Program-made: the position numbers and the translations under genes
The notes under the pieces: model-generated
What the model was told of the DNA's origin: nothing
Database searches by the model: none
Seen by the model: the letters and a program-made list of their open reading frames with translations, nothing else
Shown here: positions 23,845-49,130 of the stretch, piece after piece
Layout: each line of letters starts with the position of its first letter
Position numbering within the stretch: position 1 is the stretch's first letter
From: a virus
Direction: 5' to 3' (one strand)
Virus record (IMG/VR): IMGVR_UViG_3300008952_000005
Location: 96,001-160,000 of that record
DNA length: 64,000 bases

Positions 23845-23852
23845 TATTTATA
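23845..23852 (-). promoter_or_regulatory. T4-type late promoter for curli operon
   Basis: TATAAATA 24 nt upstream of the csgF start. Confidence 0.7.
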
Positions 23853-25532: not shown

Positions 25533-25614
25533 ATGCTATTATTAAATAGCAACTTAACCCTATAACTATTCCCAATACTGCAACAACACCTGCTAAGGTA
25601 TATATTGTCTTCAT
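25525..25614 (-). CDS. 29-aa hydrophobic peptide (not in ORF track)
   Basis: MKTIYTLAGVVAVLGIVIGLSCYLIIAFI; ATGA overlap. Confidence 0.4.
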   Translation of the reverse strand: MKTIYTLAGVVAVLGIVIGLSCYLIIAFI

Positions 25615-25775
25615 TTTTTGTCTGTTAACTTATTAATAAGTTCAAACGCTACTTTAACTTTCTCTTCCAACACTTTAATTCTATAGTGTGATTGTGCTAA
25701 AGTAACTATCAATAACACAAATGCTACTAGCATTGGCCAAAGTCTACTCAACATTAATACTGCTTCACTATCCAT
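25611..25775 (-). CDS. 54-aa membrane protein (not in ORF track)
   Basis: MDSEAVLMLSRLWPMLVAFVLLIVTLAQSHYRIKVLEEKVK...; TAATG overlap. Confidence 0.55.
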   Translation of the reverse strand: MDSEAVLMLSRLWPMLVAFVLLIVTLAQSHYRIKVLEEKVKVAFELINKLTDKK

Positions 25776-25960
25776 TACTGTACTATTTCATCTCCTGTTT
25801 TAACATTGGGTCTTGGTTTCTCACAAACTGAACAATCACATTTACTACAAATAATCGTTACCGTTTTTTGATTTCGTAATCCATCTGGACTAGAAGTAGT
25901 ATACTCCATTAACTTTTCAGGACAATGAGCTTCCCTACCACAATTCTTACACTTTTCCAT
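25775..25960 (-). CDS. small Cys-rich protein
   Basis: CKNC..HC...CSKCDCSVC. Confidence 0.6.
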   Translation of the reverse strand: MEKCKNCGREAHCPEKLMEYTTSSPDGLRNQKTVTIICSKCDCSVCEKPRPNVKTGDEIVQ

Positions 25961-26136
25961 TACTTTTGTCTGTTAATTGTTTTCTTAACTAAATCAACAG
26001 TACTTTTACTAATATCTTTAGTCTTTGTTAATAAATTTCCACCAAGGTTTATTATTTTTGTTCTAGGTGTTATCTTTTCTTGTACAATCTTTTTTGTTTT
26101 TGGATCATACTTTTGCTGTAAAAATTCCATTACCAT
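25960..26136 (-). CDS. 58-aa basic protein (not in ORF track)
   Basis: MVMEFLQQKYDPKTKKIVQEK...; TAATG overlaps at both ends. Confidence 0.5.
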   Translation of the reverse strand: MVMEFLQQKYDPKTKKIVQEKITPRTKIINLGGNLLTKTKDISKSTVDLVKKTINRQK

Positions 26137-27726: not shown

Positions 27727-28020
27727 TTATTTCTTCCTTGTTCTCATACTAGATGTTGGTTGAGCACCTCTTACGTGAACCATACCACCCATAGTATTTT
27801 CTTTCTTTTTATTTCTTGGTTCTACTTTTGGATCAGCAGACAAAAAAGGTCTTTGATTTACTGCTGTTGTATAAGCAGCGTGTAATCCAACACCTCTAAC
27901 ATTTTTTCCACCTGCTTTCTTTTTAGGTGGTGTATCACCTAAACTTGCTATAGGTTGTACATTTGAATAGTTTCCTATTCTAACACCTGTTGTACCTATA
28001 AACTCTTTAAAACTTTTCAT
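27727..28020 (-). CDS. basic protein with capsid-targeting-like N-terminus
   Basis: starts MKSFKEFI. Confidence 0.6.
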   Translation of the reverse strand: MKSFKEFIGTTGVRIGNYSNVQPIASLGDTPPKKKAGGKNVRGVGLHAAYTTAVNQRPFLSADPKVEPRNKKKENTMGGMVHVRGAQPTSSMRTRKK

Positions 28021-28343
28021 ACTCTTGCTTTTTCTTTAATAGTCTTTTTTCTTTTAGGTGTTTCAATTTTAATTTCTTCTTTCACAACTCCACTTATTTC
28101 ATCAATCTTATTTTCAAGTTTATTTAACACTTTATAAACACCTTTCAATACAACATTGTTATTGTCTTCACTCTCTTGTACTTTTCTTTTTAAAGTACCC
28201 ATAACTCTTTTCTTACCAGTTGGATTCATATCTACACCACCGTGTGCTACTGCATTTGCTGGTGCGTCTTCTTTTTTTTCTTTATCATCAATCTTATTGA
28301 TGAGTTCGTCCATCATATCTTTATAATGTTTTGGCATACTCAT
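28017..28343 (-). CDS. hypothetical late protein
   Basis: charged; KEDAPANAV motif. Confidence 0.6.
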   Translation of the reverse strand: MSMPKHYKDMMDELINKIDDKEKKEDAPANAVAHGGVDMNPTGKKRVMGTLKRKVQESEDNNNVVLKGVYKVLNKLENKIDEISGVVKEEIKIETPKRKKTIKEKARV

Positions 28344-28800
28344 ACTCCGATACTAGTTTATTATTTTGTTCATATATACCTACACCTAGACAAGTCATTA
28401 CTGGTTCATCTTCTATGTCTGGTATATCTCTTACTTCATTTAACATAGTTTCATACTGGTTAGTTTCTTTTAAATATGAAACAACACCTGCTTCTATTGC
28501 GTCTTTGTGTGCCATTAACTGTTTATCTTCTCTCAATATCATTGCCATAGCACCAAAAAAAGTACCAAACTTACTACCTAATCCAACTTTACCAAATAAT
28601 CTTTTCATATTAAAAACAAATCTATGTAAATATGTATATGCTTTTTTATCTTTACTATCTCTCAATGTCTTATTAGGTCTTAATACTTTACCTTTCTTAT
28701 CAATAATACCTCGTTTAAAAGCTTCTTGCTTTTCCCAAGATGTTACCAATAGTTTAACTACTCGGTAAGTTATTAACATATCTATTGCTCTACTTGCCAT
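28321..28800 (-). CDS. conserved T4-like hypothetical protein
   Basis: intact ORF, coupled to neighbours. Confidence 0.7.
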   Translation of the reverse strand: MASRAIDMLITYRVVKLLVTSWEKQEAFKRGIIDKKGKVLRPNKTLRDSKDKKAYTYLHRFVFNMKRLFGKVGLGSKFGTFFGAMAMILREDKQLMAHKDAIEAGVVSYLKETNQYETMLNEVRDIPDIEDEPVMTCLGVGIYEQNNKLVSEYEYAKTL

Positions 28801-29162
28801 TACAGTTCCTTTAACATTTGTTTTATCTTTTCATCTTCATCTACATCACCTAGTTCGTGTTCATAAAGTAATTTAAGATAGTTCAATACTGTTTTTAATA
28901 CTGACCAATATTCTCTATCTATTTTAAATAATAATAAAGTTATCGCTACATCTGCACTAAAAACATTTTGTAATACTACAATGTGATTAATAATTAATCT
29001 TATTTTAACGTCACCTGTAGTTTTATACTTACGAAATAACCTTTTAAGATATTTAAATCGTTTTATATCTTCCAAAAATTCTACATTATCTTCCAATGTA
29101 GGATTGCTATAATTTTGCTGAGCAAATAGCAACCAATTATCTTTGGTTATTTCCTCAAACAT
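28800..29162 (-). CDS. conserved T4-like hypothetical protein
   Basis: NY.NP...EF.EDIKRFKYLKRL...RLIINH pattern typical of marine T4-like phages. Confidence 0.7.
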   Translation of the reverse strand: MFEEITKDNWLLFAQQNYSNPTLEDNVEFLEDIKRFKYLKRLFRKYKTTGDVKIRLIINHIVVLQNVFSADVAITLLLFKIDREYWSVLKTVLNYLKLLYEHELGDVDEDEKIKQMLKEL

Positions 29163-29167
29163 CTGAC

Positions 29168-29593
29168 CTACACCAATTTAGCGTAGACCTTTGATGTTCC
29201 GTTTTTCAAAGTTTCATAATTAACTTCTAAATTTAGACCGCCAGATTTTTTGTGTGATATACCATCATCATTAATATCAGAACCGTCTGTATCTTTTCCA
29301 AACCTTCCACCAAATTGACTAACTTTCGCACTAACTTTTCCAGATGTTCCTTCCATATTAACTGGTGATACTGTTAAACCAATTCGGTTTAGTTTTTCTC
29401 TCAAACTATCTACCGCTTGTTGTGGTTTAAGGTATTCCATATCTCCTATAGAACCTACAAAAGCATTAACTCTATTTAATACTTCTGGATCGGAAACGTT
29501 ATGTACGCCTAAATTACCATCTTCAACTGCATTAGATGTTGCTGTTCCAACCATCTTGCCGTCTTCTGTTATGTGTTGTTTAAACGTTTTCAT
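29168..29593 (-). CDS. protein with capsid-targeting-like N-terminus
   Basis: starts MKTFKQHITE. Confidence 0.65.
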   Translation of the reverse strand: MKTFKQHITEDGKMVGTATSNAVEDGNLGVHNVSDPEVLNRVNAFVGSIGDMEYLKPQQAVDSLREKLNRIGLTVSPVNMEGTSGKVSAKVSQFGGRFGKDTDGSDINDDGISHKKSGGLNLEVNYETLKNGTSKVYAKLV

Positions 29594-29708
29594 CTTTTTC
29601 TTTTCCCTTTTCTTTTGCTGTGTCCTCTTTAGGACAATCAGCTATTACTTCTTCCTCAAAATCGTCCAAGTCTTTATCTTCATTAAAAATCTTAAACTTT
29701 TTTAACAT
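29580..29708 (-). CDS. 42-aa acidic peptide (not in ORF track)
   Basis: MLKKFKIFNEDKDLDDFEEEVIADCPKED... Confidence 0.4.
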   Translation of the reverse strand: MLKKFKIFNEDKDLDDFEEEVIADCPKEDTAKEKGKEKDENV

Positions 29709-29904
29709 CTTCTGTTTTAACTGGAATATCTCCAGTCATTCCTATTAACTTATTAACTTGTTGAATAGCGCCATTGATTGCATTTAAATTTGCTTTCATC
29801 TGACCTAAATCCACTTCAACTTGTTTTATATTTTTTGCCAACTTATCAAAATCTACTTGTAATCCTTGTGCTTCTGATTTAAGTTGCTCTATACTTATAG
29901 TCAT
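29692..29904 (-). CDS. small coiled-coil protein
   Basis: heptad pattern, GGAG SD. Confidence 0.6.
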   Translation of the reverse strand: MTISIEQLKSEAQGLQVDFDKLAKNIKQVEVDLGQMKANLNAINGAIQQVNKLIGMTGDIPVKTEDVKKV

Positions 29905-29926
29905 AATTATCTCCTTATATTATATA

Positions 29927-30388
29927 TTATGCAACTGCGTATCCGTTACCTGCAATTACGTTCCAATTTGAATTTTTAAATAACAAAGTAACTGTTTCAC
30001 CTACATTATTTAAAACGACATTTGTTCCGCCTCTTAAATTTGTTGGTGTTATAGTTATTGCATTACTACCAGACGTTGATGTATTAAGAACAGTTTTAAT
30101 TTGTCCATTTGAACCGTCTGCTAATGATACTGCTGCTGTTCCCGCCGTTGCGTTCACTTCTGTAACAGCACTATCTACATCTGCAACTAAAGTTCCAGAA
30201 CCTGTGCCTGTTAATGTTTGGGATGCTTGACCAAGACCTAAAAACGTTGGTACGTTATTAAATACATTTGCCGCTGATACTTTTTTGTTTATCGGTGTGC
30301 CTGATGGATCATCTATTACGTGAAACAGGTCTACACTTGCTATTGCGTTACCTAAATCGGTAAGCTGGGTGACTTTTTTATCTGCCAT
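29927..30388 (-). CDS. putative virion structural protein
   Basis: MADKKVTQLT..., G/T/N-rich beta character, late promoter upstream. Confidence 0.6.
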   Translation of the reverse strand: MADKKVTQLTDLGNAIASVDLFHVIDDPSGTPINKKVSAANVFNNVPTFLGLGQASQTLTGTGSGTLVADVDSAVTEVNATAGTAAVSLADGSNGQIKTVLNTSTSGSNAITITPTNLRGGTNVVLNNVGETVTLLFKNSNWNVIAGNGYAVA

Positions 30389-30448
30389 TTGTTTCTCCTA
30401 TTAACCCTTTCGGGAATGCTACTGTAGGTAATTCCTACATCATAATAT

Positions 30449-30456
30449 TATTTATA
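30449..30456 (-). promoter_or_regulatory. T4-type late promoter
   Basis: TATAAATA overlapping the 3' arm of inverted repeat 30454..30485. Confidence 0.7.
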
Positions 30457-30496
30457 TGGGCAACCCTATAAAGAATCGCCCATATATTATTGATTA

Positions 30497-30778
30497 TTAA
30501 GCAGCGTTTGTTAATGCTACTATCGTTTCGTACTGTACTCTTCCTGCTCTACCACCAGAACCAGTTGTCTTTAAGTTCCAACCTGCGTGTCCAGCACCTG
30601 CTGGTACTTGAGCATCCGCATAATTGAATAACCCTAAAGTTATTCCAGTAATAAAGTTATTAGCAGTTGCGTCTTCAAATAAATTTGTTCTATTTGCTGA
30701 CGTGAATGCTAATTTAGCAGCAGCACAAGCCCATAATGGTGCTCCAGCCGCCGAGTCTGCACTTGAATGTGATGACAT
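30497..30778 (-). CDS. putative small virion protein
   Basis: Ala/Gly-rich; HAGW...GSGGRAGRVQYETIVA; late promoter upstream. Confidence 0.6.
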   Translation of the reverse strand: MSSHSSADSAAGAPLWACAAAKLAFTSANRTNLFEDATANNFITGITLGLFNYADAQVPAGAGHAGWNLKTTGSGGRAGRVQYETIVALTNAA

Positions 30779-30834
30779 AGTATTCTCTCCTTTAAATTAA
30801 ATTGTTAAAGTACTCAATTCTTAATATATGTGTA

Positions 30835-30842
30835 TATTTATA
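30835..30842 (-). promoter_or_regulatory. T4-type late promoter
   Basis: TATAAATA. Confidence 0.7.
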
Positions 30843-30855
30843 AGAAAAAGGTGTG

Positions 30856-31350
30856 TTAGAAACCCAATTGTTTTAATTGTCTTATTGAATTAGACGCTGA
30901 AGTATGATATATTCCTATACCACCACGTTGTGTAAAACTATCTGTATTAGGTTTATAATCGTCAATTAATACTGCAGGACTTCTGTATCCTGTTTGAGCA
31001 TAATTTTGTTTCTGACTTCTCTTTACAAGATTAACTCTTGCACCACTTAAACCTAATTGACTTCTGCACCATTTAGTCTTACCTGGTATACAGTTAGGGT
31101 CTACATTACGGTCAACATATGCTGATAGAATATCTGGCGAATGCTTTTTTATATAATTCCACAGTTGTTTACCGTCTGATTGCCACGGCAATGTTTCCCA
31201 AAAAGTTTTATCATTTCTGATTGGGTTCCACTTATCTTGTTTTGTTAGGGACATCCATTTACTGATAGGGACTCCTGTTGCTTTCTCGGCACCTTTTTTA
31301 AAGTCTGCCAATACGCCGTCCATATCACAATAGAGTTTAGGAAGAGGCAT
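30856..31350 (-). CDS. HAD-family 5'(3')-nucleotidase/phosphatase
   Basis: CDMDGVLADF motif I, ILSA motif II, GK, LIDD motif IV. Confidence 0.85.
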   Translation of the reverse strand: MPLPKLYCDMDGVLADFKKGAEKATGVPISKWMSLTKQDKWNPIRNDKTFWETLPWQSDGKQLWNYIKKHSPDILSAYVDRNVDPNCIPGKTKWCRSQLGLSGARVNLVKRSQKQNYAQTGYRSPAVLIDDYKPNTDSFTQRGGIGIYHTSASNSIRQLKQLGF

Positions 31351-31367
31351 AATCTGAATTGCCTCCT

Positions 31368-33149
31368 TTAATTAGTATAACTTATCTCTGGATCAGTTTC
31401 AATTTTTGAAGCAGGGTTACCAGTCATAGTTCTACCTTTTGTAGGTTCATCTTTCTTTTTAGCAAGTTTTGCTTTTTCTGCTTTTTCTTTAAGTCTTGCT
31501 CTTAAAGTTTCATATTTTAGTTTGTAAGGACTTACTGCTTCTTTTTTAACTTCGTCTTTGTCTTCTTTGTCTTCTTTGTCTTCTTTTTTTTCTGCTTTAT
31601 CTCTTAAAAGTTTTTGTGCTAGTCCAACTGTTAAAGGAACTTCTCCTGTTTCTTTATCTGCAACAGGTTTAATTACTTTACCTTTTTCATTTTCTAATTT
31701 TGCTTTTAATACATTAATTTGACCTTGCAACGTTAAAATTTGTTTCTCTTGTGCTGCTGGGTCTTTAGCACTTGGACCATCTTTACCATCTTTAGCATCC
31801 CTTGTTGCTCTTATCTTTGCAATCTTTACACCTGGTTTGTTATCTTTTGCAATAGGTGGAATTTTACTTTCATTTCTTGTAGGCAACAGTACAGAGTCTC
31901 CTCTTGTTGCTGTTTCATTAGCTGCTTTATTCCAAATATTTCTGATAGTATTTTCTAAATTTGTTGATGGTTCTGGTTTATCACTACCAATAACATCTTT
32001 CTTTGGTTCTTTTTTATCTTCTGTAGTAGATACATTTGCTGTACTAAACTTAACTTCTTTTTTCTTATCTGCCATTTTAGAAACTTCTCCAGCGTCAATC
32101 GTTTCAGTAGTAGATACGTTAGCAGTTTTAAAATCAACTTCTTTTTTCTTGTCTTTCATTTTAGATACTTCGCCTGCGTCAATCGTTTCTTGCATATCTT
32201 CTGTAGGTCTTTGTGTTTCTATTCCTGAAATACCAAAATGTATATCTTGGTCATAACCTTCTGCAAGTTTCCATCCTTTTGCTAAATATTCTTTTTCTTT
32301 AGACTTATCTATTACGATAGTCTTGCCGTGTTTAGAAACCATTGTTTCTTTTTTAGGGTCTTTAAGTTGTCTTGGTAATTCTTCTTCTATATCATTACCT
32401 TTAGGTTGTTTTTCAGCAACTCTATAACCAAATCTATATTTTTTTCTAACACCTCTTGAAGCAGTACCTCTTCTTGAAGATGAATTAGCTCCACCTGGCA
32501 TTGCTTCTGAAACAGTTTCTTCCGACATTGCTTCTTGTCTTGCTAAATTCTTTTCGTTTGCTAAATGAGGTTTGATTCTATTGCCATTATATGCTCTTTT
32601 ATTTTCAGGTATCTTTTCTACTTTACCACCTTTGTCAAGAAAGTCTTTCATCAACTGCTCATCAGCGTGTTTTCCATTAGAAGGTTTCCATTCTTCTTTT
32701 AATGCTTTTCCTTTATCCCAATAATGCCAGCTTGTTTTATCCCAAATTTCATCAGGTCCTATTAGTCGTTTAAATTCTCTTTCTGCCTTATTAAAAGCAT
32801 CAATTTTTTTCATTTTATTTTCTTTTGCATATTTAATAATAAGTGCCGCTACTTCTTTACCAGTTTCGTTAGTTGAAGCTATCCAACTTTGACTTTCTGG
32901 ATCTTTGTCCATCTCATCTTTACCTTTTTTGTATTCTCTAAATTTTGCTGCTATATTATTCCAGCTAACACCTTCGTCTAGCTTATTAAAAAATGCTATC
33001 TTTTCTTTAGGTGTCATTGAACCAATACCACCCATAGTATTTTTTAATGCTTCAGCGAATTTCTTTTTATAACCTTCTTCTTTATACTTCGCTTGATGTT
33101 GATATACCACATCCTCAATACTGCCTGGTTTTTGTTTTAAATATGTCAT
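31368..33149 (-). CDS. large charged low-complexity late protein (putative internal head protein)
   Basis: K/E-rich, many (L/I/V)-x-E sites; start moved to MTYLKQ. Confidence 0.6.
   Translation of the reverse strand: MTYLKQKPGSIEDVVYQHQAKYKEEGYKKKFAEALKNTMGGIGSMTPKEKIAFFNKLDEGVSWNNIAAKFREYKKGKDEMDKDPESQSWIASTNETGKEVAALIIKYAKENKMKKIDAFNKAEREFKRLIGPDEIWDKTSWHYWDKGKALKEEWKPSNGKHADEQLMKDFLDKGGKVEKIPENKRAYNGNRIKPHLANEKNLARQEAMSEETVSEAMPGGANSSSRRGTASRGVRKKYRFGYRVAEKQPKGNDIEEELPRQLKDPKKETMVSKHGKTIVIDKSKEKEYLAKGWKLAEGYDQDIHFGISGIETQRPTEDMQETIDAGEVSKMKDKKKEVDFKTANVSTTETIDAGEVSKMADKKKEVKFSTANVSTTEDKKEPKKDVIGSDKPEPSTNLENTIRNIWNKAANETATRGDSVLLPTRNESKIPPIAKDNKPGVKIAKIRATRDAKDGKDGPSAKDPAAQEKQILTLQGQINVLKAKLENEKGKVIKPVADKETGEVPLTVGLAQKLLRDKAEKKEDKEDKEDKDEVKKEAVSPYKLKYETLRARLKEKAEKAKLAKKKDEPTKGRTMTGNPASKIETDPEISYTN
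32022..32189 (-). repeat. 84-nt (28-aa) tandem duplication
   Basis: TIDAGEVSKMKDKKKEVDFKTANVSTTE followed by TIDAGEVSKMADKKKEVKFSTANVSTTE. Confidence 0.9.
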
Positions 33150-33153
33150 AGTA

Positions 33154-35091
33154 CTATTTATCTCCTCGTTTATGCTGGGACCACAATCTTTCAAAGGTCA
33201 TTTTAGCACCTACGTGCTCGTCCTTTTTAATTGCCTTAGCAATTTCGTGACCTTTTACTATCGTTGATTTTTTCAACGGTGTTCCGCTATCCTTTTTAAT
33301 CTCTTTTGCTTTTGCCATACCTATTGCATATGCTTTGTCATCATCTTCTACTAATTTTGATATGTGTGGTATGTCTGCCGCTTTAATTGCAAGTTGTGTA
33401 GGTATATCCATTCTCTTAATCATTTGTTTAACAGCGTCGGTTACATCTGTCGCTTTTTTATTCTTCCATACACCCTTAATATTAGCAATTTGTTTATCAC
33501 TCATTTTACTTTGTAAATATCCACTATCTTCTTTAATTACTTTAGCTGATTTAGTCTTACTCATATCACCTGTTTTATACCACTTAATATATTTTTCTGC
33601 TTCAGCAGGTGTATTATATTTACCAATAACTAATTTACTTCCATCTGTTTTTGTAATCTGTACTGTATATGCTTCTTTATATACATCAATTTCTACTGGA
33701 TCAAAACCACCAGGTCTACCAACAGACCTCTTTCGTTTATTCCATAACTCAGCAAATTTATCTGCTAATTTATCTGCTTTATTTTGTGCGTCTTTATCAT
33801 TAGAAGCAGTTAATGTTCCTTCATCTTCTTGATCCCCACCATCATTACCGTAATCGGATGATATCTTAATATCATAATGATATGTTGCTTCTGTAGCAAT
33901 TTGTTTGCCTTCTGGTTCTGGTAGTTTTTGTTCAACAGGTGATGTATTTCTACCCATTTTATTAATCTTAAAACCTTTGCTTCTTAATTTCTGTGCTTTG
34001 TTTTGTAAATCTTGTAGAGTTTTTGCGTCTTCAAAACCTGCGTGTTTGCCATACTTATCATCATAAGATAATCTGAAAGGTGCTTTTGCTTCTGGAACAT
34101 AACTATGTGTCATACTAGTAGTTATACTAATAGGTTTAGTAGTTGGTTCTATTTCAACATCATCTATGTCTTCAACACTACCACCACCACCTGGTCCTAT
34201 TTTTCTTCTCGCTCTATACTTATCTAATTCTTTTTCATATTTATTTTCAGCATCCTTTTTACTAGTTGCATTAATAACCATATCAAATCTATCTTGACTA
34301 CTAACATCTTTATAACCTAAAACACCTTGTATTCTCCATCTACCTTCATCTAATTGTTCTCTTCTCATTTGTGCCAATTGGGCAGCATTAGCTCCGTGTT
34401 TTGAAATGAGTCTTGCTTGCGCTAACATTGACACAAATGGAATCTTTGCCTTTAATAGTTTTATTAAAAGCGGTTTACTCTTATCAAACTTATCAAATAT
34501 TTTCATAAGTTTGTTAGCATTAACACCACTTATAGTTTTACCTTGTAAGGGTGCGTAATCTTTTTTCAAACTTGCTATTTGACTGTCTGTAAATTCCTGT
34601 AATGTGTCAACTTCTTCACCTAAAATAATTTTTACTGTTGATACTTTTAAATTTAATCTTTTGGCAATCTCTTTATGAGATTTACCTTCTTGATCCATCG
34701 TGTAGATATCTTTCATTCTACCTTCATCAAATTCTTCCAGTTCTTCTTTTGCCATAGACACAGGTTCAGTATTCAACCATTCTTGGTGTCTTTTGCCTGG
34801 GTGTACTTTTTTACAATCGTGTTCTTCACCTAAAATTGCTTTAGGCATTATTTGTACATCGCCGTGAGATTTTTCTACTTCTTTTTTTAGTAATGTTTTG
34901 GCTTTTTCTACGTCCCCTCTTGGAACGTATAAGTTACCGTATGAAAATCTAGTACGGCTAATTCCGTTTTTCTTTAGAAAAGATTGAACACCCCACTCAA
35001 AACCTTCGCTCATTTTATAGCGAGTCATACTCATAGGTTCTCTATACCTACTTTGTTTCCACTTTTCTAATTGTTCTTTTAAGTCGCCCAT
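33154..35091 (-). CDS. large multi-module late protein (putative internal head polyprotein) with HTH-like segment
   Basis: modules separated by ILGEE/LDEG/ATEA/IKED/LVED; SHKEIAKRLNLKVSTV HTH; start moved to MGDLKEQL. Confidence 0.6.
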   Translation of the reverse strand: MGDLKEQLEKWKQSRYREPMSMTRYKMSEGFEWGVQSFLKKNGISRTRFSYGNLYVPRGDVEKAKTLLKKEVEKSHGDVQIMPKAILGEEHDCKKVHPGKRHQEWLNTEPVSMAKEELEEFDEGRMKDIYTMDQEGKSHKEIAKRLNLKVSTVKIILGEEVDTLQEFTDSQIASLKKDYAPLQGKTISGVNANKLMKIFDKFDKSKPLLIKLLKAKIPFVSMLAQARLISKHGANAAQLAQMRREQLDEGRWRIQGVLGYKDVSSQDRFDMVINATSKKDAENKYEKELDKYRARRKIGPGGGGSVEDIDDVEIEPTTKPISITTSMTHSYVPEAKAPFRLSYDDKYGKHAGFEDAKTLQDLQNKAQKLRSKGFKINKMGRNTSPVEQKLPEPEGKQIATEATYHYDIKISSDYGNDGGDQEDEGTLTASNDKDAQNKADKLADKFAELWNKRKRSVGRPGGFDPVEIDVYKEAYTVQITKTDGSKLVIGKYNTPAEAEKYIKWYKTGDMSKTKSAKVIKEDSGYLQSKMSDKQIANIKGVWKNKKATDVTDAVKQMIKRMDIPTQLAIKAADIPHISKLVEDDDKAYAIGMAKAKEIKKDSGTPLKKSTIVKGHEIAKAIKKDEHVGAKMTFERLWSQHKRGDK

Positions 35092-35092
35092 T

Positions 35093-35515
35093 TTATTTGA
35101 ATCTATTATCTCTTTTGAAATTGTATGATAAACTATGTCTGCTGTATAAGTGTCCGCCGTGAGTGTCAAATACACGGTTTAATGAGTCCATATACTTTCT
35201 GTCTAAAACATTTCCTCTAGCACCTTTTGCTGGAGCATTAACACCAGCTGCCTTCAAAACATCTCCTGTTACCTTATCTACGAAGGCGTGGATACTTCTC
35301 TTTTGTCCTCGTTCCGTATCCCAAATTTTGATATACTTACCACCTACACTTGTAGCTACATCACGTCTTTGGTCTCTATATAAATTGGCAAATTGTGGGT
35401 GTCTTTTGATTTTTTCCCTAGCGATTTTAAGGTAATCATCTACGCCCTTTAAGACCATAGCCGAACTTTCTGCTACGTATAGTTTATGTACGTATTCTTT
35501 GAATTTAGTTGCCAT
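35093..35515 (-). CDS. conserved phage protein with capsid-targeting-like N-terminus
   Basis: MATKFKEYV...VAE; GKYIKIW..SIHAFVDKVTGDVLKAA..APAKGARGNV. Confidence 0.65.
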   Translation of the reverse strand: MATKFKEYVHKLYVAESSAMVLKGVDDYLKIAREKIKRHPQFANLYRDQRRDVATSVGGKYIKIWDTERGQKRSIHAFVDKVTGDVLKAAGVNAPAKGARGNVLDRKYMDSLNRVFDTHGGHLYSRHSLSYNFKRDNRFK

Positions 35516-35523
35516 TTCTCTCT

Positions 35524-38265
35524 CTAAAGTTTCTCAATCATCTTAGCGACTACTTCGTTTAGTTTCGCTTTCCACTCTTCTTTATAACGTTGTTTATATT
35601 TATCTATTGTTGAATCTTGGTTTGACCATTCTTTTACTTCCTTTGTAGTTAACTTATCTTCACCAACTTTAGCATCCGTTGCCTTACCTGGGCGTGATAT
35701 GTATGTATCAGTAGGTTTTCCTCGGTCTTTTGAGTCAACAGGAGGTGCATCCTCTTTTTCTCCAGGTGTCATCTGTTTACAATGATTAGCATAATCAGCA
35801 CCTATTTCATAACTATCTCTAATTGCTGTGTAAGGTTTAGGTACTGGTATCGTTTCAACTGCTTCAAATCCATAATCAATGTCTAGGTTGTATTCTCTTA
35901 ACAATGGTTCTTTATCAGCAGCAACTGGTATACAATCCCATATCCAGCATTTGTGTAAATTATTATTTGTATCTTCTAGTACAACATAATTCGTACCTCT
36001 TCGTACTACTTTACCTTGTTTATCTTCTTTAAGATATTTAACTTGGTCTCCAATATTGAATATCATCTCCCTAACGTATAGGTCTCTAACTTGTTTCTGT
36101 TCAAACTGTCCTAATGTCATAATAGGTTTTGAAGTATCTGGTTTATAGTCTTCTCTTATACCCATACCTTTTCTTACTGCTTTAAACAGTCCATCAACAT
36201 CTCTAAAATGAGATGGTAGTCCTCTCTTAAATGACGCTACATCACCTTTTTGAGCAGCATCCCTCATCTTGCTCGCACTCATACCTGAAGCACCCTCAGC
36301 GTCTGGATCACGCTCTCCAGCAGATATAACATCTATTGTTTTAAAGTTATAATATCCGTGTCTATTTTTCTGGTCGTTATATTTTTTAAGTATCGTTTCA
36401 AATTCTCTTACTCTATCACTACCTACTACAAATTTAAGAACATTATGCCCTTTGTTATATAACATAGTAGCAATATCTAATATCATATTTGTTGTATTAA
36501 TTTCAATGTTTCTAGCATATTGTGGAAATATCTTTTTCATCCAAGATAATTTCTCTCTAGGAGATAATGGATTCTTTTTACTATCTTCTGACCTACTGAT
36601 ATAGATTTTATAATTTCTATCTGCTCTTACAACTTTATTAATAAGTTTTTCGTGACCTATTGTTGGAGGATTAAATCTTCCAAATGTAATTGCAATAGAT
36701 TTTTCTCCTACTGCTTCTGATTTTAAACTTTTTATTTCTGCGTCTGTTACCTTTTCATCTTCTAATATTTTTTTACATTTGTAAAAGAATTTTGTGTAAT
36801 GAAATTTCTCCAAATACTTATAGACAACATTTTTAGGTAACTTATGAGCGATACCATATTTTTTAATCTCTTCTGGTGTCAAAGGTCTATTAAATAAATC
36901 TCTTCTTGCCTGCATAAGGTTATCACCCATTTCGGACATCTTCTTTATAGCATCCTCTATCTCTTCTAATTTCTCAGCAGTTTTTATATGTAAATCTAAT
37001 ATATCATTTGGTTTTAATTCTTTTAACTCTTCATAGTCAACTATATCTCTTTGTAATTCTCCTTTAACTACATCTAGTTCTGCCACTTTCTTTTGAAATT
37101 CTGCCTCATATACTTTAGGATCAAACGTTTGTTCTTTAGGTCTCTTATCAAATTTCTGTTTGAATACATCATAAACTCCTGTAGCAGTTTCAAGATGAGC
37201 GTCATTTACTTTAGGGTCTGTTTGAACATAATAATTAATCGGGTGTTGCGTACCTGGTACTAACTTACCACTAACTTCTCCTACAGATTGTCTTGCTTCT
37301 AAACCAACTGTTTCTCTATCTTTTTCTGGTATGTCTATCAATACATCAATATCTAAATCTGCGTCATTTCTATATCTCTTTCCAAGAATAGAACCTATTA
37401 ATTTTACTGACACAACAGGACCCCATTTTGAAAAATGTTTTGCACCTGCTTTAATCATATCTAAAACTTTTGGTTTTAATTTTGGATTTTCTGTTTCTGC
37501 GTCATCAAATACACCAACAGCATATCTACTTCTAGGTACATCTATAATACTTTCTCCCATTACCAATCTTCTACCAACACTAAACATTGTATTCTTAAAC
37601 ATTTGTTCTCTTGACATCCAATTTTTTGCAATATGACTTTTAACTGGTGCTCTCATATATCGTCTAACTAATCTGTCACAACCTGCTAATGTTTGTGACA
37701 CTAATTCTTTATCTGACCTATTATTATCTACTATAATAAAATTTGATTGACCAAATAATCTTTGAAATTTACCTATATTAGATTGCACTTTCTCCCAAGA
37801 TGTTTGTACAACATACTCTGGTATTTGCCTACTTCTTATTTTATTTCTTTCTAACGCAACAGGTAATGTTGTGTTAACAAATATCATATAACAATCATAA
37901 CCTAATGCGTGTAGCATATTATATTCGGAATTTATTCTTGCATAATCTCTTCCAGTTGCGTCAATAACTAAACCTAATCTGCCTCCTACATATTGGTGTA
38001 ACTGTTTCATCATTGTACCTTTTGCTCTGGCTCTTATAAGGTCTCTAAAATATTTTTCTTGGTCAGGCATTTTGTCTGAAAGTCCTGCCTGTTTCAATGC
38101 TCTTTCAAATATTGTATCTGAATTAACAAACTTTAATCCAGTTCCAGCAAATGCGGAAGAAGCGATAAAGGTTTTTCCTGAACCTGGTCCACCCGCCATA
38201 AAAAAGGCTTTAAATATACCTGGATCGTATACACCTTCTTGTAATAAAAATTCTTTAAACTTCAT
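35524..38265 (-). CDS. fusion of P-loop kinase, Pol-beta-type nucleotidyltransferase and HxGH cytidylyltransferase-like domain
   Basis: GGPGSGKT plus VIDAT; IGSI..RYRNDADLDID; FGRFNPPTIGHEKL, GSDR, SASKMR; C-terminal KOW/SH3-like region. Confidence 0.8.
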   Translation of the reverse strand: MKFKEFLLQEGVYDPGIFKAFFMAGGPGSGKTFIASSAFAGTGLKFVNSDTIFERALKQAGLSDKMPDQEKYFRDLIRARAKGTMMKQLHQYVGGRLGLVIDATGRDYARINSEYNMLHALGYDCYMIFVNTTLPVALERNKIRSRQIPEYVVQTSWEKVQSNIGKFQRLFGQSNFIIVDNNRSDKELVSQTLAGCDRLVRRYMRAPVKSHIAKNWMSREQMFKNTMFSVGRRLVMGESIIDVPRSRYAVGVFDDAETENPKLKPKVLDMIKAGAKHFSKWGPVVSVKLIGSILGKRYRNDADLDIDVLIDIPEKDRETVGLEARQSVGEVSGKLVPGTQHPINYYVQTDPKVNDAHLETATGVYDVFKQKFDKRPKEQTFDPKVYEAEFQKKVAELDVVKGELQRDIVDYEELKELKPNDILDLHIKTAEKLEEIEDAIKKMSEMGDNLMQARRDLFNRPLTPEEIKKYGIAHKLPKNVVYKYLEKFHYTKFFYKCKKILEDEKVTDAEIKSLKSEAVGEKSIAITFGRFNPPTIGHEKLINKVVRADRNYKIYISRSEDSKKNPLSPREKLSWMKKIFPQYARNIEINTTNMILDIATMLYNKGHNVLKFVVGSDRVREFETILKKYNDQKNRHGYYNFKTIDVISAGERDPDAEGASGMSASKMRDAAQKGDVASFKRGLPSHFRDVDGLFKAVRKGMGIREDYKPDTSKPIMTLGQFEQKQVRDLYVREMIFNIGDQVKYLKEDKQGKVVRRGTNYVVLEDTNNNLHKCWIWDCIPVAADKEPLLREYNLDIDYGFEAVETIPVPKPYTAIRDSYEIGADYANHCKQMTPGEKEDAPPVDSKDRGKPTDTYISRPGKATDAKVGEDKLTTKEVKEWSNQDSTIDKYKQRYKEEWKAKLNEVVAKMIEKL

Positions 38266-39480
38266 TTATTTCCATCCTTTTGGCAACGTAAAGTTTGCCC
38301 TACTAAATTCTAATCTATCTACTATTTTTACTGCACCTGCTACTCTATCTACTGCAACATATCCTTCAGGTGCTGTTACTCTATATCCTGTTCCAGTTTT
38401 AATGTAGTGTCCTATCTGTTGAATTTGATTCATCTTTTGTATCAATGTGTTCTTCGCATTACCTAAAGTTACGTGACTTGCTATCGCCATATATAAACCT
38501 GATTTATTTTGATTAATAAATCTTAATCCATCTGCTAATATATCTCTATATTTTTGTTTTGCTTTTTCAGTTTTTCTTTGGTCTATTTCTGTCTTCAAAA
38601 TGTTCTCATAATAATCTCTAAACATATCTTGCAAGACTCTAACCTTTGCCATACTGCCTTTATTATTTCTAATGTAATGATTGAAAAATGCTTTTAATCT
38701 AAACCCTACAGATAAAGGGTCACTAGCACGACTAGTCATTTCATCTAATATCTTACTTGCTTTACCTAAAGAACCTTCTGCCATTCTTAATTGAGCATCA
38801 AATTTTCCTAGTTCTGATTTAGTAAAAGTAATAGAACCAGAGTCATCCTTATATTCAGCACTCGCAACCCACACTCTTGAATTACCTGACCCTCTAACAT
38901 TACCAAAACTTGCACTTAAACTTTTCATATCTTTACCAGTATACATTGTATGAAATACAATACCCATTTTAGCACGAGCAATTTTCTTACCTATATTGCT
39001 ATTTGATTGTACTGCATATGTGATTGTATTTGGTGTAAAGGTTATCATTTTTTCACCATCAATTGAAGCTGATTTTTTATCGTTAGTAAATAATAAATCA
39101 CCTTGTAAAATTTGTTTAATGTTTAAACTAGATAAATGATTAAGACATACTGATAATTTTTGAGCGACAGGACCAGAATGGTTCCGTCTTATGTCTGCTG
39201 TTGTGTAATTGATTTTGGGAGTTTTGTTGAATATAGATTTAGTACCAACAAAGAATTGACCGTTTTCAGGATTGACACCACATATAATAGCAGGTGCCCC
39301 ATCCCATTTAACAGTAGTATTGATTTTTGCTCCCGAGTGACCTGCGAGCATATCTCTTACTGATTTTAGAAAGTTAATTGCGTTAACTCCACCAGCCGAA
39401 CCTCTATTGATTATATCATCTTCTAGGTGTTCTAGGTGTGTGTTCTTGTCGTTTGTGGTAAAACCTTTAAAACTAAACAT
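38266..39480 (-). CDS. conserved T4-like protein (DUF6267-like) with ATP-dependent ligase-type motifs
   Basis: HLEHLED, TVKWDGAPA (KxDG), QGDLLF, PEGYVAV, AVKIVDR. Confidence 0.65.
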   Translation of the reverse strand: MFSFKGFTTNDKNTHLEHLEDDIINRGSAGGVNAINFLKSVRDMLAGHSGAKINTTVKWDGAPAIICGVNPENGQFFVGTKSIFNKTPKINYTTADIRRNHSGPVAQKLSVCLNHLSSLNIKQILQGDLLFTNDKKSASIDGEKMITFTPNTITYAVQSNSNIGKKIARAKMGIVFHTMYTGKDMKSLSASFGNVRGSGNSRVWVASAEYKDDSGSITFTKSELGKFDAQLRMAEGSLGKASKILDEMTSRASDPLSVGFRLKAFFNHYIRNNKGSMAKVRVLQDMFRDYYENILKTEIDQRKTEKAKQKYRDILADGLRFINQNKSGLYMAIASHVTLGNAKNTLIQKMNQIQQIGHYIKTGTGYRVTAPEGYVAVDRVAGAVKIVDRLEFSRANFTLPKGWK

Positions 39481-39544: not shown

Positions 39545-39552
39545 TATTTATA
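39545..39552 (-). promoter_or_regulatory. T4-type late promoter
   Basis: TATAAATA upstream of 38266..39480. Confidence 0.7.
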
Positions 39553-39625: not shown

Positions 39626-39826
39626 ATGAAAACACACGAAAAAGACTTTGAGATTCTACAAGATGAAATTCAAAAAGTTTTAGATAAAGCTGAAATAAAA
39701 ATGAATACTCTTATAGATGATTATAGTACAAAGTATGAAGATGAAGATGACGCTGTACAAATTCAAACTTATGATTTAAGTTCTTTGTTCAGACAGTTAT
39801 CTGACTTTGTTGAAGACCATATATAA
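39626..39826 (+). CDS. small acidic protein on opposite strand
   Basis: 66 aa, 18 D/E; TG-A-TAGTAT 6 nt before ATG; codon usage like neighbours. Confidence 0.6.
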   Translation: MKTHEKDFEILQDEIQKVLDKAEIKMNTLIDDYSTKYEDEDDAVQIQTYDLSSLFRQLSDFVEDHI

Positions 39827-40999
39827 TTAATATATCTTTATAAAAGGTCCGTTTGTGTCTGAAAACTCTTTCTTTGAACCGTAGTATAGGACACTTAACC
39901 ATTCATCAAATTTTTTCCTTTGACTTATGATTTGGTACTGTTGAATATGTTTTAACGTAACTAATTTTGAGAATAATCTACCTAAAACATTTCTATCTTT
40001 TTTTATATTTGTTGGTTCTAAACAATATTCTATAACCTTTTTAAAGGTAACATTTTTACTACCTAATTCTATAGGAGCATCCCAATTAACCTTTTCATTT
40101 TCAATTTTAATATCTTTAATTTTTTTATATAAATTATCCCAAAATTTTATTTGACTGTCTGAAAATTTACCATCAGTTGCAATGTTGGCATCCTGTGTAG
40201 GTGATTCTGGTCTTGCTAAACCTAGTGTCTTTAAAAATTCATCAATAGCAGCTGAAGCTACTTTACCTAATTTAGCTCCACTTTTTCTACCTAGTGGTGT
40301 TAAATCTGTTTGAATAACTGTACTAGGTTTACTATATCTAAAACTTCTTACTTGTACTTTAACTATCTCATCATCTATTTGCGTTTTAAAAGTAAATTCT
40401 CCAGTATCAAAAAGAGGTGGTTTTGTAACATCTAAATCACAAAATAATGTGCCAGGAATTATTTTAATATCAACACCTTTTGATCCAGCTGTTAAATTAG
40501 ACTCTTCTATTGACGCTTGGTTTATACCTCTTTTTATTTCTTTTAATGAAACTGGTATCATACTCTTATTCTTTAAAAGAGTTTTCATATAAAGGTTTAA
40601 CTTTATTAATTTATCTTGTGGTATAAGACCAGGAGTTTTAGCAATTTTTTCTATTTTTTCTTTTATTTTTTTCTCATTTGCTTTTTTTACTAAAAGAATA
40701 TCCATAGGATTCCAAGAATTTTGTTTGGAAGGTCCTCTAACATCCATATATCTACCAACAATACCCATTAACCAAGGCAGTATACCATTATCTCTACTAT
40801 AATTATAATTTTTATTGCCTCTTAAATATCTTTTTAAAGCGTCTGCTTGAAGTTTGTAAGTATCAACCCACTTTGCTGGTACATCTGGATATACTTTTTC
40901 TATAATAGAAGTTGTAGGAAATTTACCAGTTTCTATTACAGATTCAATTACAATCCTTGAACCGTTTTCTTGTTTCTTTGTTTCTATTTCTCCTGCCAT
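39827..40999 (-). CDS. putative restriction-endonuclease-fold protein
   Basis: WNPMDILLV...PVSLK resembles a PD-(D/E)xK variant. Confidence 0.45.
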   Translation of the reverse strand: MAGEIETKKQENGSRIVIESVIETGKFPTTSIIEKVYPDVPAKWVDTYKLQADALKRYLRGNKNYNYSRDNGILPWLMGIVGRYMDVRGPSKQNSWNPMDILLVKKANEKKIKEKIEKIAKTPGLIPQDKLIKLNLYMKTLLKNKSMIPVSLKEIKRGINQASIEESNLTAGSKGVDIKIIPGTLFCDLDVTKPPLFDTGEFTFKTQIDDEIVKVQVRSFRYSKPSTVIQTDLTPLGRKSGAKLGKVASAAIDEFLKTLGLARPESPTQDANIATDGKFSDSQIKFWDNLYKKIKDIKIENEKVNWDAPIELGSKNVTFKKVIEYCLEPTNIKKDRNVLGRLFSKLVTLKHIQQYQIISQRKKFDEWLSVLYYGSKKEFSDTNGPFIKIY

Positions 41000-41014: not shown

Positions 41015-41022
41015 TATTTATA
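41015..41022 (-). promoter_or_regulatory. T4-type late promoter
   Basis: TATAAATA, then GGAG SD and ATG at 40999. Confidence 0.7.
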
Positions 41023-43188: not shown

Positions 43189-43571
43189 TATACTTTAAAA
43201 CTCCTTACGCCTTTTAGTCTTTGTTGTAAAAAATTTATAAATTTCCATCGGTTCTCAACTAATTTACCATATCTTTTATAATGACACAAAATACCTTTGA
43301 TTCTTTTACCAGCTTCCGCCTTTTTTAAATGAGCAATTAAATGTCTTTTGCTAAATCTATCTGTAATTTTTATTACTTTAACTTTTTTAACTACCTCTTT
43401 TTTAACTTCTTCTTTTTTAACTTCTTCATTTTTAAATAATATTCTATCAGCTTTTTTGTCTATTTGATTTAATCCTGTTTCATATATTCTTAAATCTCTA
43501 TCTTTTTTTAAACCAGGACCTCTAATAAATTTTCTATTACCAGTTTGTTGATGGTCTATTATTTTTACCAT
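43188..43571 (-). CDS. hypothetical basic protein
   Basis: TAATG-coupled to gp41. Confidence 0.55.
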   Translation of the reverse strand: MVKIIDHQQTGNRKFIRGPGLKKDRDLRIYETGLNQIDKKADRILFKNEEVKKEEVKKEVVKKVKVIKITDRFSKRHLIAHLKKAEAGKRIKGILCHYKRYGKLVENRWKFINFLQQRLKGVRSFKV

Positions 43572-44956
43572 TATACTTTAAAGTCTGAAAATTTATCGTA
43601 CGGATCCACTTCAACTTTTTTCTCCTGGTTGGCGTCTACTATGTTTTGTGCTGTTTGACCTACATCATACAATCTCATTTTAGCTCTATCAACCCCTATA
43701 ATAAATGACCTATTAATTCCTGGGTCATTATATCTATTCTTCAATTGTTTAATCTTTAACTGACCTAATGCGTCTAAATCATCATTGGATATTATTGCAA
43801 ACATAAAGTCTGCTGTTGCTGGCAATCCAAAACTTTCTGCTGTATCTTCTAGTCCTATGTCTGTACTCATAAATCCAGTTCTTGTTGTTTGTGTAGCAGA
43901 AAACAAAGGTACATTAAATTCTACTGCAAGTCCTCTTAACTCTTCAGCGATTGCCTTGATATAAAAATAAGAACCTATATTGCCACCTTTAAATCTACTT
44001 GACGCACATATATTTAAATAATCTATGAACACTACATCTGCTTTAAAACTTTTCTTTAATGCAAGTTCATTAAACAATGCTCTAAAATGTCCTGCGTGAG
44101 CAGCGGCAGTTGGATATTCTTTAATAATTAATTTACCACCAGTCTTCTTTCTTATCTTATCTATGTTATTATCATATAAATCTTTTGGCATTGTATGTAA
44201 ATCGTCCATAGTTACATCTAATAAGTTTGCGTCAATTCTTTCAGCAATTCTTTCTTCTGCCATTTCTAAAGTGATATACAATACATTTAAACCTTGTGCC
44301 AAATAAGCACTTGCACAATGACACATAAACAAAGACTTACCTACACCTGTACCTGCCAATGCAATATTCAAAGTCTTACTTGGAACACCACCCTTGGTTG
44401 CTCTATTCATATAATCTAAATCAAATTGATATTTTGTTTCTTTAGTATGATACCATTTAAATCTTCTATCAGCGTCATCTATATAATCGTGACCAATATG
44501 TTGGTCAAATGATACTGCTAATGCGTCTGCTAGTATACTAGGTATTGCTTCTGGTGTTCTTTTAGTATCTTTCTTATCTAATATTCTAATGCCATCTAAT
44601 ACAGCATTATGTACTGCTCTATCTTTACAAAACTTTTCAGTTACATCTAACAACCATTTTGGATCGGAATCTAATTTAGTTATAGAATTAATATTATCTT
44701 TTAATGTATTAATTTCATCTTCATTAATATCTTTTCTTTGTCCTAATTCAATTGAAATGGATTCTTTTGTTGGAAGATTATTATATTTCTGAACAAACTT
44801 ATATATTTCTGTAAATAAAATCTTATCAGTTCTTAATGGAAAATAATCTTCTTTTAAAAACGGCAATACTTTTCTAGCATACTCTTCTTGAAAGAAAAGA
44901 TTATTTAATATAGTTGTTTCTAGTCTATCTGAATTATGAAATGACTGCTGTACCAT
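43571..44956 (-). CDS. gp41: T4-like replicative helicase
   Basis: ALAGTGVGKSL, TLEMAEERIAERIDAN, IKEYPT, IDYLNI, SATQTTR, KQLKNRY. Confidence 0.95.
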   Translation of the reverse strand: MVQQSFHNSDRLETTILNNLFFQEEYARKVLPFLKEDYFPLRTDKILFTEIYKFVQKYNNLPTKESISIELGQRKDINEDEINTLKDNINSITKLDSDPKWLLDVTEKFCKDRAVHNAVLDGIRILDKKDTKRTPEAIPSILADALAVSFDQHIGHDYIDDADRRFKWYHTKETKYQFDLDYMNRATKGGVPSKTLNIALAGTGVGKSLFMCHCASAYLAQGLNVLYITLEMAEERIAERIDANLLDVTMDDLHTMPKDLYDNNIDKIRKKTGGKLIIKEYPTAAAHAGHFRALFNELALKKSFKADVVFIDYLNICASSRFKGGNIGSYFYIKAIAEELRGLAVEFNVPLFSATQTTRTGFMSTDIGLEDTAESFGLPATADFMFAIISNDDLDALGQLKIKQLKNRYNDPGINRSFIIGVDRAKMRLYDVGQTAQNIVDANQEKKVEVDPYDKFSDFKV

Positions 44957-45254
44957 CTTTTAATTGTTGCTCCAATATTTCTATTAATATATCACCAATG
45001 TAATTAAGAAAATCTACGTTCTCATTTAAATCAAGATTATTTGGATTCTGTTTGATTGTATAATCAAATTTCATTGGTAATGTGCCATCTTTATTTTCTT
45101 CTTTTGCAAATCCAACTTTGCCATAATGATATACGACATCTTTATACTTACCTTCGGTAAGTTTAATACAAGAAAAATCATCACCTTCTCTTTGAGCAAA
45201 GGTGTATTTCTTATTCTTCTGATCCGTATGTAAATTTTTGTCTTGCGTGTTCAT
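44934..45254 (-). CDS. hypothetical protein in the gp40-syntenic position
   Basis: lies between uvsX and gp41, as T4 gp40 does; sequence similarity not verified. Confidence 0.55.
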
Positions 45255-49009: not shown

Positions 49010-49130
49010 ATGCCTTACCTAAAAATCTCACTACTAATAAAAATATAATAAACTGGTAGAGTTTTATATTAGTATTCTGTGCTAGAAAACCTCCAAACAA
49101 TACAGCAAAAAACATTATAAAGTTGTTCAT
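48999..49130 (-). CDS. 43-aa membrane peptide (not in ORF track)
   Basis: MNNFIMFFAVLFGGFLAQNTNIKLYQFIIFLLVVRFLGKAYGY; ATGA overlap with gp43. Confidence 0.45.
   Translation of the reverse strand: MNNFIMFFAVLFGGFLAQNTNIKLYQFIIFLLVVRFLGKAYGY

Follow-up and report, generated by a model that had tools for sequence, protein, structure and literature searches.

What is the function of the first gene in a late transcription unit of a marine T4-like phage, when its product belongs to a family with no assigned function? The question is raised by a 64,000-nucleotide (nt) stretch of viral DNA, positions 96,001 to 160,000 of IMG/VR record IMGVR_UViG_3300008952_000005 (hereafter the window, to which all coordinates refer), in which the open reading frame (ORF) at 38266-39480 encodes a full-length member of the Pfam family DUF6267 (1.9e-124). 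DUF6267 is present in hundreds of cyanophage genomes and is not mentioned in the literature that we searched. A preliminary description of this locus had seen nucleotidyltransferase motifs in the ORF and had proposed that it may encode an RNA ligase within a distributed, possibly injected repair system. We propose, with a probability of about 0.5, that the protein is a polynucleotide ligase, with RNA a more likely substrate than DNA, and that it works together with a kinase/nucleotidyltransferase protein encoded by the next gene. The virus genome behind the window is complete, with 177,460 bp and terminal repeats; the window itself has a GC content of about 31%, carries nearly all of its genes on the minus strand, and has a gene content of the marine T4-like myovirus type. 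Megablast found no phage record matching the focal region.

Among cultured phages, the nearest relatives of the focal protein are encoded by Synechococcus phage DSL-LC02 (50% identity), cyanophage P-TIM40 and Methylophilales phage Melnitz, and a search with DUF6267 recovered 2,713 cluster representatives (clusters at 50% identity) at E values of 1e-3 or better. The gene and its parts are as follows, with strands referring to a structural model described below.

38266..39480, minus strand: DUF6267 protein, 404 amino acids, predicted covalent nucleotidyltransferase with a ligase fold.
39448..39480, minus strand: N-terminal leader MFSFKGFTTND, the residues ahead of the KNTHLEHLED motif; capsid-targeting-like, lacking LxE in this copy.
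39298..39309, minus strand: motif I KWDG, residues 58-61, in which K58 is the predicted nucleotidyl-accepting lysine.
39088..39105, minus strand: motif III-like QGDLLF, residues 126-131, within model strand 124-131.
38422..38820, minus strand: all-helical domain of five helices, residues about 221-353, inserted between the nucleotidyltransferase halves according to the secondary structure of the model.
38356..38367, minus strand: motif IV-like EGYV, residues 372-375, running into model strand 373-378.
38314..38331, minus strand: motif V-like VKIVDR, residues 384-389, within model strand 382-387.

The four motifs lie where the preliminary description had placed them and in the order found in ligases, and their residues are conserved across an alignment of 96 DUF6267 relatives that are 35-47% identical to the query, with a mean column identity of 36%. 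KWDG closes model strand 54-58; its K58 and D60 do not vary, and conservation of G61 reaches at least 90%. The same minimum applies to each of Q126, G127 and D128 in QGDLLF, to E372 and V375 on either side of the invariant G373 in EGYV, and to D388 and R389 of VKIVDR, in which K385 is invariant. Because exactly these columns are kept in diverse relatives, the four strings are not chance occurrences. Ahead of motif I the DUF6267 proteins share a further conserved motif, KNxHLEHxED (H15, H18 and E20), for which we know of no counterpart.

A structure predicted with AlphaFold2 from the family alignment has a predicted local distance difference test score (pLDDT) of 91.5 and a predicted template modelling score (pTM) of 0.87, with residues 1-10 below a pLDDT of 50, and contains a beta-rich domain assembled from residues of about 50-210 together with 357-390. 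When this model was compared with BFVD, the first 19 matches were the DUF6267 family itself, several of them labelled 'cytidyltransferase-like' because they are fusion proteins, and the matches that followed were mostly annotated RNA ligases, beginning with Atu_ph07 (1e-3) and continuing with Tunisvirus, African swine fever virus, an entry of T4 Rnl1 length, and RM378. RNA ligases rank above DNA ligases both here and in a second fold search. The ligase alignments comprise 162-194 residues and span model positions of about 9-399, and therefore skip the helical insert. The model has no OB-fold domain after the catalytic domain, only the helical insert and a short C-terminal helix. Motifs and model together suggest that the DUF6267 protein is a divergent, hitherto unrecognised member of the covalent nucleotidyltransferase superfamily of ATP-dependent ligases and capping enzymes, from which its chemistry is predicted. 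The earlier proposal of an RNA ligase thus gains a ligase-like fold with RNA ligases as the best matches, although this does not distinguish an RNA from a DNA substrate.

Several features set the family apart from the RNA ligases T4 Rnl1 (gp63), fungal Trl1, T4 Rnl2, T. brucei REL1 and Naegleria NgrRnl, with which it has no detectable profile similarity. Its helical domain sits between motifs III and IV rather than at the C-terminus, the conserved HLEHxED precedes motif I, and motif V has a single lysine (VKxVDR). In addition, most members bear a cleavable-looking leader of capsid-targeting type, and the usual partner is an adenylyltransferase resembling nicotinamide mononucleotide (NMN) adenylyltransferases (NMNAT-like).

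That partner is encoded immediately downstream. The next gene starts directly after the DUF6267 stop codon, confirming that the ORF lies directly upstream of a kinase/nucleotidyltransferase fusion, and the fusion protein is composed as follows.

35524..38265, minus strand: 913-amino-acid protein, beginning one base past the DUF6267 stop codon.
37561..38265, minus strand: residues 1-235, leader MKFKEFLLQE, then a P-loop kinase of AAA_33/zeta/Pnk type (Pfam AAA_33 2.8e-12, Zeta_toxin 1.3e-4).
36751..37560, minus strand: residues 236-505, Pol-beta-type nucleotidyltransferase (GS...DLDID) and a long helical linker.
36106..36750, minus strand: residues 506-720, HxGH (TIGH) adenylyltransferase, nearest to NadM/archaeal NMN adenylyltransferases.
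35524..36105, minus strand: residues 721-913, C-terminal region with no family match, kept beside the adenylyltransferase in 38/80 related loci.

In the kinase domain GPGSGKT and N48/S49/D50 are invariant in relatives, with Asp50 placed after strand 2. All 13 aligned relatives of the Pol-beta domain match PF01909 (best 3.6e-6) and PF18765 (best 5.2e-5); the families listed for these 13 are NTP_transf_2, Polbeta and MTPAP-like_central, RlaP not being among them, and the nearest ESM Atlas clusters carry NTP_transf_2 with a score of 0.97. Fold searches gave no separate signal for this domain, as the adenylyltransferase domain filled both match lists. The adenylyltransferase itself is far below the cut-offs of the NadM, NadR and archaeal NMN adenylyltransferase families (NCBIfam score 29.6 bits, cut-off 341 bits) and matches PPAT nearly as well, and it differs from NadM and NadR in being fused to a kinase, a Pol-beta nucleotidyltransferase or DUF6267.

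If DUF6267 is a polynucleotide ligase, Lys58 of KWDG would take adenosine monophosphate (AMP) from ATP and pass it to the 5'-phosphate end of a nucleic acid, and a 3'-OH would then attack the adenylylated end and so seal the break. The helical insert of about 130 residues would hold the substrate, as do the helical domains of Rnl1, Rnl2 and Trl1. As the product of the first gene of a six-gene late unit the protein would cooperate with the 913-amino-acid protein, in which the kinase would add phosphate to 5'-OH ends and the Pol-beta nucleotidyltransferase would put back 3' nucleotides that had been lost. The enzymes would be packed into the head, cut at LxE by the prohead protease and then injected along with the DNA; head loading is probable because the partner and most DUF6267 relatives carry a T4-like leader. 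We infer the lysyl-AMP chemistry, the substrate, the cooperation of the enzymes and their packaging in this phage.

The case for RNA draws on both the model and a comparison of parts. T4 Pnkp, which combines a P-loop kinase with a HAD phosphatase, and Rnl1 repair tRNA that has been cut by PrrC. The late unit likewise supplies four enzyme classes: a protein with a ligase fold, a kinase of P-loop type in which an Asp follows strand 2, a nucleotidyltransferase of Pol-beta type and a HAD phosphatase. This list fits the phage RNA repair systems described by Burroughs, Iyer and Aravind, which combine a ligase, a polynucleotide kinase, a HAD protein and a Pol-beta nucleotidyltransferase of RlaP type (PMC7824862, section 3.4.9). 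Together with RNA ligases as the best fold matches, the helical accessory domain and a model with no OB fold, the similarity of parts makes an RNA heal-and-seal interpretation of the block plausible. There are also differences. Kinase and HAD are separate proteins, unlike in T4 Pnkp, RlaP is not among the families listed for the Pol-beta domain, which is accompanied by an extra HxGH adenylyltransferase, and the unit is late with likely head packaging whereas the T4 system is early.

The HAD component is the least secure of the four.

30856..31350, minus strand: HAD phosphatase, 164 amino acids, DMDGV at residues 9-13; the last gene of the unit (phrog_2643, 1e-25).

It had been described as a DxDGV HAD phosphatase downstream in a strand-contiguous block, and it does begin with DMDGV and is the last of six packed minus-strand genes. 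Its suggested role as a healing phosphatase akin to that of Pnkp gains no support. No match was found in Pfam, NCBIfam or PDB sequences, and phrog_2643 is annotated as a phage 5'(3')-deoxyribonucleotidase; the DMDGV start and this match tentatively point to a nucleotide phosphatase and not to a Pnkp-type end phosphatase. The gene is 4 kb from the kinase gene, with three unrelated genes between them, and its linkage is patchy. We conclude that the HAD protein is probably a nucleotide phosphatase outside the core of the system.

We surveyed synteny at 80 related loci, with downstream counts taken from the 47 that have at least 3 kb of downstream sequence. The gene order in these loci is gp43-UvsX-gp41-...-DUF6267-[kinase-PolB-]adenylyltransferase, with gp41 upstream of DUF6267 in 25/27 loci, the adenylyltransferase downstream on the same strand in 42/47 and the kinase downstream in 19/47. 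The linkage envisaged earlier is thus seen in relatives for the kinase, the nucleotidyltransferases and the gene of the ligase-like protein, which are linked or fused, and it is patchy for the HAD gene, found in only 12 of the 80 loci and directly after the kinase in one (L055). Among the 150 best cluster representatives at least 13 are fusions of the adenylyltransferase with DUF6267, in both orders, and one (P0180) is a kinase-DUF6267 fusion; PHROG 455 is itself such a DUF6267 fusion, and the pairing is kept in the soil Stenotrophomonas phage DLP6. Such fusions say more about partnership than gene order does. In 18 of 19 DUF6267 fusions with N-terminal extensions (proteins P0134-P0272) an [LIVM]xE sequence is kept at the junction, which suggests that the fusions are polyproteins cut by the prohead protease.

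The leaders point to a destination for these proteins. In T4 the internal proteins IPI-IPIII and Alt carry a capsid-targeting sequence that is cut by gp21, and are injected with the DNA. The T4 leader MKTYQEFIAE, which we found at two T4 gene starts, is resembled by the start of the 913-amino-acid protein (MKFKEFLLQE, then G), by one of two small genes near the block, which start MKTFKQHITE and MKSFKEFIG, and by the family consensus MxxFxxxLxE; the DUF7717 protein encoded next in the unit starts MATKFKEYV...VAE, then S. A gp21-type prohead protease gene is present in the genome (PF03420, 1.1e-36). A signature M..FK[EQG][FYH] is shared by the N-termini of five neighbours (27727-28020, 29168-29593, 35093-35515, 35524-38265 and 38266-39480) and by one further ORF elsewhere in the 177-kb genome. 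This pattern, derived from the leaders, occurs at 6/277 first methionines of ORFs and at 0/895 internal methionines, with five of the six within 27727-39480, although the p-value of this comparison is inflated because we chose the pattern with the sequences already in view; a looser leader pattern was not enriched at gene starts (2/277 versus 7/895). The shared signature may mark a set of head-packaged proteins. In T4, diverse anti-host proteins are packed behind the capsid-targeting leader (PMC3012670). The phage cargo would differ from IPI-IPIII and Alt: in place of small basic proteins it would comprise large enzymes and fusions that resemble polyproteins.

Among DUF6267 relatives that bear a leader, 77 of 85 have [LIVM]xE at most 14 amino acids before the HLEH motif, compared with 11.6% of control windows, and 9 of the 96 relatives are leaderless and start exactly at the HLEH motif. 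In purified virions of S-SZBM1 the cytidylyltransferase _140 and the product of the next gene, _139, were detected, and the DUF6267 homologue _141 is absent from the reported virion proteins (PMC9146016); _140 has the leader MRFRQFIIE, and _141 is leaderless, starting MAKNTHLEH. S-CREM2 virions likewise contain the cytidylyltransferase and two downstream proteins (PMC10665884). The DUF6267 protein of the phage studied here starts MFSFKGF, with a leader that lacks LxE. The suggestion that the system is injected is therefore credible for the 913-amino-acid partner, given its leader and its virion homologues, whereas packaging of DUF6267 appears to be leader-dependent and is uncertain for the copy in this phage.

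The block had also been called late, and the promoter sequences agree with this.

39545..39552, minus strand: TATAAATA, a late promoter box of T4 type, 65 nt ahead of the ATG of DUF6267; the sole copy upstream of the block.
30835..30842, minus strand: next TATAAATA box, directly beyond the HAD stop codon, where the following late unit starts.

The unit consists of six minus-strand genes spaced 0-17 nt apart when likely ATG starts are used, and no intergenic terminator-like sites were found within the six-gene block. There are seven copies of TATAAATA in the window (at 23845, 30449, 30835, 39545, 41015, 46655 and 57749), all on the coding strand, compared with 18 +/- 4 expected over both strands; this depletion and strand bias fit selection against stray late promoters, and the positions of the box map the late units. 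In 30/53 related loci a copy lies no more than 160 nt upstream of DUF6267, where about 0.02 per locus is expected. Because the box is present and conserved, we regard the six-gene block as late despite its replication-gene surroundings. A reading of the block as part of an early or middle replication module, drawn from the gp43/UvsX/gp41 synteny, was dropped given the conserved TATAAATA box.

A number of observations weigh against a polynucleotide ligase that acts with its neighbour in RNA repair. Foldseek, which had been suggested as a check, ranks RNA ligases best after the family itself in BFVD and returns nothing below 1e-3 in PDB. A Pfam scan, NCBIfam and a profile hidden Markov model (HMM) search on PDB sequences yielded no ligase family for DUF6267, phmmer and the DUF6267 profile HMM gave only helical low-complexity matches to PDB sequences, and hhalign of the DUF6267 profile with a single T4 Rnl2 sequence gave a probability of 0.1. 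K58, D128, E372 and K385 are thus matched to the ligase motifs by order, conservation and predicted strand placement rather than by residue-level superposition. The kinase is at least as similar to zeta toxin and adenylate kinases as to T4 Pnk (its profile finds zeta toxin in PDB sequences at 5e-4, then adenylate kinases, and T4 Pnk at 0.56), and the most constant partner, the NadM-like adenylyltransferase, has no place in known T4-style heal-and-seal pathways. Gene linkage is weak evidence because synteny is conserved across the whole phage group, and the LxE at 18 of 19 junctions means that the fusions may reflect co-packaging rather than shared chemistry. Finally, ARAGORN found no tRNA genes in the 177-kb genome, and we know of no anticodon nuclease threat in the host of this phage.

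The alternative that fares best, although we consider it unlikely, is that DUF6267 is the missing DNA ligase of T4-like phages of cyanophage and pelagiphage type, sealing Okazaki fragments or genome nicks, perhaps nicks in injected, sunlight-damaged DNA, with the kinase repairing 5'-OH ends. The gene for gp30 is among those absent from some marine cyanophages (PMC2993671), and the complete 177,460-bp genome has no match to PF01068, PF01653 or PF09414 (in T4 controls PF09414 recovered Rnl2 and PF09511, which was run on the T4 control only, recovered Rnl1). Five other records with DUF6267 have no PF01068 or PF01653 match, these being DSL-LC02, Melnitz, P-HM1 and two uncultured contigs, one of them about 75% complete. 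DUF6267 would share a superfamily with gp30 and other ATP-dependent DNA ligases, and its gene lies between gp41/UvsX/gp43 and the remaining replication region of phages that lack gp30. However, Stenotrophomonas phage DLP6 encodes a gp30-type ligase (PF01068, 2.5e-15) alongside DUF6267 (1.4e-119), and a simple replacement of gp30 is thereby weakened. DUF6267 further differs from the DNA ligases in having no OB domain in the model, no PF01068 match, and a promoter that is late rather than early or middle, and the order of matches in both fold searches favours RNA ligases.

The constant NMNAT-like partner fits neither an RNA nor a DNA scheme, and this keeps alive a different and rather improbable reading in which the cluster is a module for nucleotides or nicotinamide adenine dinucleotide (NAD+). 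The kinase and the NadM-like adenylyltransferase would act like NadR, converting nicotinamide riboside to NMN and NMN to NAD+, DUF6267 would use the product or adenylylate a small molecule, and injection may prime host metabolism or counter NAD+ depletion. The adenylyltransferase is not just the most constant partner but is fused to DUF6267, the HAD protein is nucleotidase-like, and a role in NAD+ metabolism has already been proposed by cyanophage authors for the virion-associated enzyme (PMC10665884). Against such a module are the adenylyltransferase score, a small fraction of the NCBIfam cut-off, and the kinase domain, for which the Pfam scan gave no ribosylnicotinamide kinase match. To our knowledge, moreover, the characterised members of the ligase and capping superfamily act on polynucleotide ends.

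We give still less credence to a set of injected host-takeover effectors that nucleotidylate host tRNA, RNA 5' ends or proteins and have no part in repair. Among PDB sequences the kinase profile matches zeta toxin best, the Pol-beta domain belongs to the minimal NTP_transf_2 type, and both the capsid-targeting-like leaders and the virion proteomes are in keeping with delivery to the host, as is the packing of varied anti-host proteins by T4 behind a like leader (PMC3012670). No result points to a particular host target, however; a ligase fold in which all of the motif residues are conserved suits joining more than attack, and the parts list fits the RNA repair systems already described (PMC7824862). 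That the motifs arose by coincidence in a non-enzymatic protein of structural or scaffolding function is scarcely credible, since, although no sequence profile links DUF6267 to ligases, the predicted catalytic residues are invariant despite a mean column identity of 36%, ligases top two independent fold searches, and DUF6267 is fused to two enzyme classes.

A polynucleotide ligase acting with the kinase/nucleotidyltransferase protein is thus the reading that we prefer. We extend it with considerable hesitation to a broader picture, doubtful as a whole, in which DUF6267 is a new polynucleotide ligase family, packed in the head through a T4-like leader, cut by the protease from polyprotein-like precursors, and injected with a kinase and two nucleotidyltransferases as a virion-borne repair kit common among marine T4-like phages, which had been believed to lack ligases. 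Both the ligase superfamily and heal-and-seal systems have been described before; in the literature that we searched, DUF6267 is not assigned to this superfamily, nor is there a description of its helical insert, of its leader or of its adenylyltransferase partner. If DUF6267 is a ligase, it would fill a long-noted gap, as no ligase is recognisable in T4-like cyanophages or their relatives, and would add to the superfamily a new branch with a new domain layout and a potentially useful enzyme. The 'cytidylyltransferase' that recurs in cyanophage virion proteomes would likewise gain a concrete role and, with a head-targeting leader, DUF6267 would be the first case known to us of a phage delivering joining and end-healing enzymes with its DNA.

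The remaining genes of the transcription unit lie between the 913-amino-acid protein and the HAD phosphatase.

35093..35515, minus strand: DUF7717 protein, 140 amino acids (Pfam PF24835, 3.1e-17), with the leader-like start given above.
33154..35091, minus strand: protein of about 645 amino acids with a weak sigma-70 region-4-like helix-turn-helix (Sigma70_r4_2, 9.5e-6, just under the cut-off), variable among relatives.
31368..33149, minus strand: 593-amino-acid protein with no family, PHROG or ESM Atlas match, variable among relatives.

The likely ATG start of the protein of about 645 amino acids is at 35091, directly past the upstream stop. Upstream of the DUF6267 gene lie the replication genes that recur in the related loci, together with genes encoding a 2OG-Fe oxygenase and methyltransferases.

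43571-44956: gp41 helicase.
45211-46233: UvsX.
49127-51616: gp43 polymerase.

The gene immediately upstream of DUF6267, at 39827-40999, encodes a 390-amino-acid protein (phrog_1462, 1.7e-52) with its own TATAAATA box 16 nt upstream (41015-41022). Its counterpart in Melnitz starts with the leader-like sequence MQGFKTFLSE, and the phrog_1462 protein may share the cargo set. In the 346-nt gap between this gene and DUF6267, beside the late promoter box, there is a 66-amino-acid ORF with an ATG start on the plus strand (39626-39826). The only large plus-strand gene of the window, at 23877-25532, encodes a protein of 551 amino acids with no assigned function (phrog_35576, 1e-118), and both GC and AT skew reverse locally around it, at 24001-26000. 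Elsewhere, at 52850-54262, a 470-amino-acid protein matches a PHROG annotated as 'ribosomal protein S6 glutaminyl transferase' (RimK-like; 5.8e-22).

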